32,000 nucleotides of DNA, from positions 1-32,000 of the IMG/VR virus record IMGVR_UViG_3300003321_000691. One strand, written 5' to 3'. This DNA is from a virus. Positions 9,628-10,011 of this stretch are shown here, piece after piece (the first letter of the stretch is position 1; each line of letters begins with the position of its first letter). The notes below the pieces were generated by a model. The model saw only the letters and a list, made by a program, of their open reading frames with translations, did no database searches and had not been told where the DNA came from. A program made the position numbers and the translations under genes.

Positions 9628-9689
9628 GCCTCATGTTTACCATCACTTACGACGTCACGCCAGGTTACCGCTACCGCACCGCGTCAACC

Positions 9690-9975
9690 CGCGCCCCGTA
9701 TCCCAGTATCCTGCCACGTATCCGAATTTCCCGATTTACAGCTGATTTCACACACATGCCCAGTATTTCCCCGTATCGTCCCGTATGAAATGCGATCAAC
9801 ACTTCTTAGGTCTGTGTGTGTATGCGTGTAGTGTATCTTACAGTCCTATACACACACAGCTTATAACTCTATAGACACATACTATCCATACGGGACATAC
9901 TAGGCATATATTAGGAATCATTCATGTCCAGTATCGCCAAACGTAAGCCCCGATACGTGGACAGATACTGGACGC
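9690..9975. promoter_or_regulatory. array of short (C/A)GTAT(C) motifs in both orientations, in a lower-GC intergenic region
   Basis: Top-strand copies: CGTATC at 9697, 9717 and 9772; AGTATC at 9705 and 9930; AGTATT at 9762; CGTATG at 9782; TGTATC at 9832. Inverted copies: ATACGG at 9888, ATACTA at 9897, GATACG at 9952 and GATACT at 9964. Confidence 0.5.
9812..9859. repeat. perfect 12-bp inverted repeat CTGTGTGTGTAT / ATACACACACAG with a 24-nt spacer
   Basis: Read directly from the sequence: left arm 9812-9823, right arm 9848-9859. Confidence 0.85.
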
Positions 9976-10011
9976 CTGGCGCTCGGCCCACCCACGTCGT
10001 ACTTTGGGGCT

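Follow-up and report, generated by a model that had tools for sequence, protein, structure and literature searches.

The window analysed in this work was a 32,000-nucleotide stretch of DNA (positions 1 to 32,000 of the IMG/VR virus record IMGVR_UViG_3300003321_000691) with a GC content of 65.5% and a phage-like gene content. Within this window, a non-coding region of 384 bp (9628-10011) was found between the ATG of a gene of the DUF5681 family (at 9627, minus strand) and the ATG of a divergent gene (at 10012, plus strand). The GC content of this region was 50%, the lowest in the window; an earlier note on this DNA had described the region as AT-richer. It was found that the region carried short iterated sequences (iterons) arranged in mirror symmetry around a central inverted repeat and that a similar layout recurred, with different iterons, upstream of related genes. 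The region may be a site at which packaging of the phage DNA is initiated. The features on which this reading is based are as follows.

5611-7407, minus strand: large terminase (TerL) gene, matching phrog_38 (E = 9e-62) and Pfam Terminase_6C
9127-9627, minus strand: DUF5681-family gene, 166 amino acids, candidate small terminase (TerS) or site-recognition subunit
9634-9639, minus strand: putative -10-like hexamer TAAACA, 6 nt before the ATG, with the last T missing
9693-9723, plus strand: outer iteron triplet, proximal to the DUF5681 gene, GCCCCGTATCC, TCCCAGTATCC and GCCACGTATCC, scoring 14.1-15.3 bits with the iteron position weight matrix (PWM)
9758-9788, plus strand: inner-left iteron triplet, GCCCAGTATTT, TCCCCGTATCG and GTCCCGTATGA, with an exact 10-bp spacing
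9812-9859: central core, a perfect 12-nt inverted repeat, CTGTGTGTGTAT (9812-9823) / ATACACACACAG (9848-9859), with an N24 spacer
9877-9905, minus strand: inner-right iteron triplet, inverted, with a 9-bp spacing; the copy at 9877 is weak
9926-9973: outer-right iteron group, one plus-strand copy (9926) and two minus-strand copies (9951 and 9963, 12-bp spacing)
10012-10368, plus strand: lone divergent gene, 118 amino acids, with its sole homologue at the same position in the comparison locus L024

Structure of the iteron array

The region contained 15 GTAT/ATAC tetramers, 11 of which fitted the longer consensus (G/T)(C/T)CC(A/C)GTAT(C/G). The iteron was 8-11 bp long with the consensus YCCMGTATS, and 11 good copies and one weak copy were present in 9693-9973, starting at the following positions.

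Plus strand: 9693, 9701, 9713, 9758, 9768, 9778 and 9926
Minus strand: 9886, 9895, 9951 and 9963, and the weak copy at 9877

At least 12 GTATC-type iterons, eight of them on the top strand, had been reported in the earlier note. The repeats themselves proved to be real, but the top-strand count included a GTATC at 9833, which lies in the core spacer and has no CC upstream of it. The sequence CCNGTAT occurred eight times in the region, against an expected number of 0.46, and this count was reached in none of 5000 Markov-1 simulations; only 10 copies were present in the entire 32 kb. When the window was scored with the PWM, which had been derived from these copies, 11 of the 15 sites of at least 12 bits fell within 9693-9973.

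The iterons were grouped in triplets with a spacing of 8-12 bp, mostly 9-10 bp. The outer triplet at 9693-9723 mirrored the segment 9951-9973 (inverted repeat I2, 20 nt, 85% complementary), and the inner-left triplet mirrored 9877-9905, with inverted repeat I8 (GTCCCGTATG/CATACGGGAC) being 100% complementary. The outer-right group had PWM scores of 14.0-16.8 bits, and inverted repeat I10 (GTCCAGTATC/GATACTGGAC) was also 100% complementary. Four pairs of plus- and minus-strand iterons were mirrored about 9836.5-9837. Alignment of the left arm with the reverse complement of the right arm gave a score of 40, compared with -41.7 +/- 10.4 for shuffled sequences. Therefore, it may be concluded that 9685-9988 is an imperfect palindrome of approximately 300 bp, a feature absent from the earlier note. 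The palindrome to which that note had drawn attention, GAGGCATGCCTC at 9621-9632, is present and contains the start codon of the DUF5681 gene; however, it is a chance-level feature and carries no weight because the window holds 14 perfect 12-bp palindromes. A search of the region against Rfam gave only one chance-level miRNA match, and no tRNA was found in the region. The repeat array is non-random and conserved in design.

Two further repeats were observed. A satellite pair of iterons, GCCTCGTATGC and GCCACGTATGT, with a 9-bp spacing (8247-8266, plus strand) was found inside the gene at 7784-8365, 1.4 kb downstream of the array; its PWM scores were 12.0 and 13.8 bits, Tandem Repeats Finder assigned it a period of 9, and it may be a secondary binding site. 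A direct repeat, TTACAG-N8/9-CACACACA, was present at 9736-9756 and 9838-9858 (plus strand) and yielded a third CACACA tract between the outer-left and inner-left triplets (9723-9758).

Central core

The 12-nt inverted repeat with a 24-nt spacer claimed in the earlier note was confirmed; no other perfect 12-nt inverted repeat in the window had a spacer of up to 40 nt. It has the form (TG)5TAT-N24-ATA(CA)5 and is centred at 9835.5, with an imperfect extension spanning 9803-9866. The spacer is not palindromic and is just moderately AT-rich. Folding of the core as single-stranded DNA gave -11.4 kcal/mol (z = -3.6).

A near-identical core, GTGTGTGTGTAT-N23-ATACACACAC, was found in the comparison locus L030, where it is oriented towards the gene as in the window. 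The local alignment score of the two cores was 33, while shuffled sequences gave 13.9 +/- 2.3 with a maximum of 25. Scanning for the core pattern gave one match in IMG/VR, more than 120 in metagenomes and nine in genomes (GTDB). None of the matches in IMG/VR, JGI metagenomes or GTDB genomes had a DUF5681 gene, and none was a related locus; one high-GC match (L076) looked eukaryotic. Multiple alignment of the central regions across the loci was uninformative.

Putative promoters

Of 11 family loci, five (L027, L028, L161, L163 and L165) had an exact TANNNT at -12 to -7 relative to the ATG, with a chance of approximately 0.01 per locus. This position suggests a leaderless promoter and an actinobacterial-type host. 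The putative start of the leftward operon was separated from the nearest iteron by at least 55 bp and from the core by approximately 200 bp. Therefore, the arrays are not simple occluding operators for the leftward promoter. A single sigma-70-like match, TAGACA-18-CATACT (9872-9901, plus strand), was present in the region; it overlapped the inner-right iterons and would serve the 118-amino-acid gene.

Related loci have the same layout with different iterons

The comparison loci were retrieved through the DUF5681 gene, and upstream DNA was present in seven of them (L024, L025, L027, L028, L030, L161 and L163). In all seven, the GC content of the upstream region was 9-16 points lower than that of its own locus. 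The region was 322-541 bp long in the six loci that spanned it and at least 213 bp long in L027, where the contig ended. Repetitiveness was measured as the excess of exact repeated 7-mers, which replaced a one-mismatch 7-mer statistic that was dominated by low-complexity k-mers. The excess was greater than in all 500 shuffles in L024, L025, L030, L161, L163 and L027, whereas it was reached by 7 of 500 shuffles for the window and by 27 of 500 for L028, where it was weak. A comparison with related phages had been proposed in the earlier note; in these loci, the low-GC, repeat-rich layout recurred, whereas the iteron sequence was different at each locus.

L024: 15 copies of TGTCCA/TGGACA, and a perfect 17-nt inverted repeat around 110 bp
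L025: (T/G)CAGTA and A(T/C)ACCG (also given as CAGTA/ACACCGC)
L027: GTGAGCCA
L030: CTCAGGCCT
L161: ATGCTG(A/T)GCC (ATGCTGWGCC)
L163: TGTTCTATG

The iterons of these loci were often arranged in triplets, with a spacing of mostly 9-10 bp, and were nearly confined to the upstream region (6/6 copies in L030, 7/7 in L161, 7/7 in L027 and 12/13 in L024). L030 reproduces the plan of the window almost exactly: three forward copies are followed by approximately 24 bp, the core, another 24 bp or so and three inverted copies. The sole gene conserved beside all of the regions was the DUF5681 gene. The divergent genes were unrelated across the loci, except for the 118-amino-acid gene of the window and its L024 homologue (42% identity, E = 1e-20).

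Eight independent contigs with family members (L001, L026, L027, L029, L162 and L164-L166) ended 21-310 bp upstream of the DUF5681 gene, which was more than expected. Three of these eight contigs, all from one study, had ends no more than 22 bp apart. The cause could lie in physical ends, in breaks of the assembly or in microdiversity.

The DUF5681 protein is a probable small terminase

The 166-amino-acid protein matched Pfam DUF5681 with E = 8e-5, a sub-threshold match. An exhaustive search with hidden Markov models revealed 56 distant relatives, and DUF5681 was matched by 11 of 40 aligned family members. The long, 166-amino-acid start was backed by the conserved N-terminus. No match was obtained when this protein and two family members were compared with phages (INPHARED) by tblastn, and searches of GTDB genomes, IMG/VR and JGI metagenomes with the protein or with sub-alignments were negative; the 40-sequence family alignment was too diverse to be used as a query. 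The subfamily (P0002-P0062) was seen only in run-level assemblies from soil and other sources (Logan, ENA and a few JGI proteins), and no member was found in INPHARED, IMG/VR or GTDB genomes by the methods used.

The AlphaFold (AF2) model of the protein, with a mean confidence score (pLDDT) of 81.9, consisted of a disordered basic N-terminal arm (N-arm) with a GNPxGRP motif, two short helices, a small sheet and two longer helices. With Foldseek, the best-ranking fold in the PDB was the oligomerisation core of an SPP1-like TerS (E = 0.1, probability 0.90), and several of the fold matches in BFVD were "terminase small subunit" entries (E = 0.02-0.09). The weak fold matches were enriched for small terminases. 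In addition, hhalign matched the C-terminal motif D-x-S-K-L-S-x-E-Q-L (E = 2.4e-4, probability 44%, 28 columns) to the protein annotated as TerS in Pseudomonas phage POR1, the TerL of which is a distant relative.

The gene position was also considered. In the headful-packaging Salmonella phage STGO-35-1, a DUF5681 gene is the last one in the genome when the latter is re-oriented to the TerL start, and this is the TerS position (PMC8954984). A TerL homologue was located 1.3-4.6 kb from the DUF5681 gene in all five loci that were long enough (the window, L025, L030, L161 and L163), and the linkage was kept in L161, where TerL was on the opposite strand. The nearest known relatives of the window TerL were at most 31% identical to it and heterogeneous; therefore, the packaging type is unreadable from TerL. 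Considering the weak fold and profile matches together with the TerS position and the TerL linkage, the DUF5681 protein was treated as a probable small terminase. The label "terS", which the earlier note had given to 9127-9627, is therefore probably right, although the protein itself is just a sub-threshold DUF5681 match.

Co-variation of the protein and the iterons

Between the window and L163, TerL was 65% identical, whereas the DUF5681 protein was 34% identical and the iterons differed. Judged from these sequences, the DUF5681 protein diverges much faster than TerL.

One family member, P0002 (311-811 of L001), combined parts of two types. Its first 22 residues were of the type of P0003 (the L024 protein), with 21 of 26 N-arm residues matching P0003, while it was 64-80% identical to the window protein over residues 23-100 and approximately 50% identical over the C-terminal third. 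The 66 bp of upstream non-coding DNA visible on its contig contained GGACAC repeats like those of the P0003 locus and not CCMGTATS. P0002 has the appearance of a natural chimera. The N-arm and the first helices (33 of 50 residues) as well as a CAGTAT iteron core were common to the window protein and P0004. A correspondence between N-arm type and iteron type, to which P0010 is a counter-example, should be taken as a lead rather than as proof.

Genes flanking the region

The source contig of the window protein is at least 107.9 kb long according to its protein database record. No nucleotide match to 8000-12000 of the window was found in INPHARED by megablast. The Logan contig SRR1926128_14829 was 100% identical to 240-19531 of the window and supplied independent gene calls. 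Outside the immediate locus, the following genes were identified.

581-1609: tail-fibre-like gene
18824-21463: PrimPol/VapE-type helicase of a replication module, approximately 9 kb from the repeat region

A PD-(D/E)XK protein and a protein with an intein also belong to the replication module. The protein of 1072 amino acids encoded at 27610-30828 (plus strand) contains an intein with a LAGLIDADG homing-endonuclease domain.

The product of the 118-amino-acid gene had no match in family searches, and its AF2 model, made from the single sequence, had a pLDDT of 47 and was unusable. Directly downstream of the DUF5681 gene lie two paralogous genes (8362-8715 and 8727-9101, minus strand) with 39% identity, for which family searches gave no match. 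Paralogous small proteins of phrog_17693 were encoded near the iteron region (11877-12287, 13887-14285 and 14282-14758, minus strand), and homologues flanked the region in other loci (L030 3503-4248, L161 10-447 and L162 681-821). A small gene with a GerE/LuxR-type helix-turn-helix was located directly downstream of the DUF5681 gene in L028 and L029 and approximately 0.9-1 kb downstream of it in L027 and L161. Its product could be an alternative DNA-binding partner; no such gene was detected in the window.

ARAGORN predicted two tandem tRNA-Ile genes with the anticodon AAT (5463-5539 and 5541-5615, plus strand). Both are on the strand opposite to TerL, and the second one overlapped the 3' end of the TerL gene by 5 nt (5611-5615). 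This anticodon is unusual for bacteria.

Possible functions of the region

Packaging, replication and a multi-operator switch had been put forward as candidate roles in the earlier note. The comparative evidence favours the packaging site. We give about even chances to the reading that the region is a packaging-initiation site of the pac or cos type, with an SPP1-like tripartite structure in which TerS-binding arrays flank a core. A packaging role is favoured because the repeat-rich, low-GC region recurs in seven loci, because the DUF5681 gene is linked to TerL and because of the TerS position in STGO-35-1.

We infer that the DUF5681 protein acts as TerS, that the iterons are its binding sites and that the core is where cleavage takes place. 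The two mirror-image iteron sets, that is, the outer and inner triplets, would be docking sites for a DUF5681 oligomer, with adjacent iterons read by adjacent subunits on both sides of the core. A phasing of 9-10 bp would fit DNA wrapped around a TerS ring of approximately 9-10 subunits. Wrapping or looping of the DNA would present the (TG)5TAT-N24-ATA(CA)5 core to TerL for the first cut, and packaging would then run leftwards through the terminase operon. The arrays have a divergent transcription start on either side, and for this reason the complex may act on transcription as well, like the SPP1 terminase; transcriptional control coupled to packaging-site recognition is possible.

Several observations weigh against this interpretation. 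The association of the region with the DUF5681 gene is partly built in since the loci were found through this gene. The arrays of L161 and L163 are mainly direct and not mirror-symmetric; mirror symmetry is thus common but not universal among the loci. The conserved core does not track TerL similarity: L163, which has the closest TerL, has a plain AT-rich centre, yet L030 shares the core with a TerL identity of 35%. The fold matches of the DUF5681 protein are above E = 0.001, no TerS-family or annotated match to it was found in PHROG or NCBIfam, and a PDB sequence search gave one non-significant, unrelated match (E 0.57). Four genes separate the DUF5681 gene from TerL in the window. The contig ends described above are in the gene-proximal arrays and not in the centre; therefore, they are unreadable as termini. 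Finally, P0010 has a window-like N-arm and a different iteron, so the correlation between arm and iteron is not clean.

A region of this kind might instead be devoted purely to transcriptional control. A phage regulator, which might be the DUF5681 protein or the 118-amino-acid product, would then use the arrays as operators or activator sites and thereby govern how the leftward late operon and the divergent gene are expressed, without any role in packaging. The region does separate divergent units in L025, L028, L030, L161 and L163, and it is followed by a lone plus-strand gene in the window and in L024, where the 118-amino-acid gene is conserved beside it. The sole sigma-70-like match overlaps iterons, and a core common to L030 but not to L163 could represent common host promoter elements rather than a common terminase. 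Moreover, SPP1 terminase represses its own synthesis from pac (PMC6316719). However, 12 sites across 280 bp are far above the usual number of operators, and the likely -10 element of the DUF5681 operon abuts the ATG, away from the iterons by the distance given above. Apart from DUF5681, no recognisable regulator gene is conserved beside the region, and the divergent genes are unrelated across the loci. Control without packaging was judged rather unlikely. The region could also be a replication origin, at which iterons bind a phage initiator around a meltable, Z-DNA-prone (TG)n/(CA)n core and the PrimPol-helicase is loaded. Iterons, dyad symmetry and a central AT-richer segment are classic origin anatomy; in SaPI-type origins, two iteron sets flank an AT-rich stretch. 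Here, 12 iterons lie beside an AT-richer element (50% against 65.5% GC) in the segment with the lowest GC content of the window, and the phage encodes its own PrimPol/VapE-type helicase. Nevertheless, no initiator or replication gene adjoins the region in any locus, the neighbouring genes have no replication-family match, and the genes with which the region is linked are those of DUF5681 and TerL. Neither a DnaA box (with up to one mismatch) nor an integration host factor (IHF) consensus was found in the region, its iterons of 8-11 bp at a 9-10-bp spacing are unlike Rep-type units of 17-22 bp, and the GC skew keeps its sign across it. An origin at this place is, in our estimation, improbable.

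An origin of the region as a non-functional or selfish insertion, such as a palindromic element resembling a miniature inverted-repeat transposable element (MITE), or as a chance low-complexity spacer, is very improbable. An intergenic, imperfect palindrome of approximately 300 bp that is AT-richer than its surroundings would be expected of such an element. However, no other copy was found, and the core scans of IMG/VR, JGI metagenomes and GTDB genomes revealed no related locus; a scan for the iteron-triplet pattern, which covered IMG/VR only, gave 21 matches, several of which were tandem-repeat arrays in giant-virus contigs. The presence of the same anatomy with a different sequence at the same position in distant relatives argues for function and not for transposition. 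A MITE proper was ruled out since no other copies were found. A protelomerase target (telRL) was rejected as well, since the 24-nt spacer is not palindromic and no protelomerase family match was found among the window open reading frames (ORFs) scanned. An invertible switch did not agree with the mere 24 bp between the perfect arms and the lack of a recombinase, nor did L5-type stoperators agree with a motif that is not dispersed through the window. For a ParR/parC-type centromere, no ParA, ParM or ParR match was found when 23 window ORFs were scanned against Pfam. A ParB_N protein was encoded 1 kb from the region in L024 only.

Returning to the packaging site, a broader proposal may be made, although we hold it only tentatively and consider it more doubtful than not. 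According to it, high-GC soil phages with large genomes (at least 108 kb), which form a clade not sampled so far, would use an undescribed type of packaging site, composed of dyad-symmetric, lineage-specific iterons of 8-11 bp phased at approximately 9-10 bp. Each iteron would be read by one subunit of a DUF5681 ring, and the specificity would reside in the swappable N-terminal GNPxGRP arm, of which the chimera-like P0002 gives a hint.

Implications

The recognition of viral DNA by small terminases is unclear in most phages, since few pac sites have been defined and their sequence logic is rarely obvious. Here, explicit, countable and lineage-specific iterons are combined with a fast-evolving candidate TerS, which would make protein-site co-variation directly testable. 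If the packaging reading is true, a function will be assigned to Pfam DUF5681, and packaging sites, and hence transduction and terminus behaviour, will become predictable in uncultured soil phages. If the reading of the GNPxGRP arm is also true, it will provide a readable code of TerS-DNA recognition, by which pac sites could be predicted from sequence alone. Should the region be a regulatory or origin element instead, it would still be a clean example of protein-site co-evolution, in which the anatomy is kept while the sequence diverges.

Comparison with known systems

The closest likeness in layout was considered to be with the sites described below. In Bacillus phage SPP1, TerS (gp1) binds to pacL and pacR, TerL cuts at pacC between them, and the terminase is autorepressing; the pac overlaps late promoters and the 5' end of gene 1 (PMC6316719). 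The region studied here resembles this site in its location at the head of a probable terminase operon, in the two arrays flanking a central segment and in the overlap with putative promoters. It differs in that its flanks are triplets of 8-11 bp iterons with near-perfect mirror symmetry and in that the whole site is upstream of the gene, whereas SPP1 pacR is inside gene 1. In addition, the candidate TerS, a DUF5681 protein, has no detectable sequence relation to SPP1 gp1.

The pac repeats of phage P1 are palindromic Dam sites inside pacA that are bound by PacA, and cleavage is regulated by methylation. Four and three copies of TGATCA/G reportedly flank the cleavage region within approximately 160 bp, in work attributed to Sternberg and Coulby and to Skorupski et al. 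Both sites thus have two clusters of short repeats around a central segment; however, the iterons described here are asymmetric, oriented and non-coding.

In the cos site of phage lambda, which directly precedes the small-terminase gene, repeated gpNu1-binding sites adjoin a nicking site with partial symmetry. The cosB segment has three to four R sites of 16 bp and an IHF site, mostly on one side, and the half-sites of cosN are 12 bp apart. The likeness consists of repeated sites with a partly symmetric centre directly upstream of a (candidate) small-terminase gene. In contrast to lambda, the arms of the core here are 36 bp apart, an IHF consensus is absent, and TerL is of the Terminase_6C type and not GpA-like.

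Iteron origins, such as lambda ori and the SaPI ori (staphylococcal pathogenicity islands), are similar in that clusters of iterons flank an AT-richer, easily melted centre. The iterons described here are shorter and tighter, are not adjacent to an initiator gene and are linked to packaging genes. In parC of plasmid R1, a core promoter lies between two phased arrays of approximately 10-bp iterons, to which a small protein binds cooperatively. The two phased arrays of approximately 10 bp around a core are common to both; the parC arrays, however, are direct repeats beside the parMR operon, whereas the arrays described here are mirrored about their core and lie upstream of a candidate small-terminase gene.

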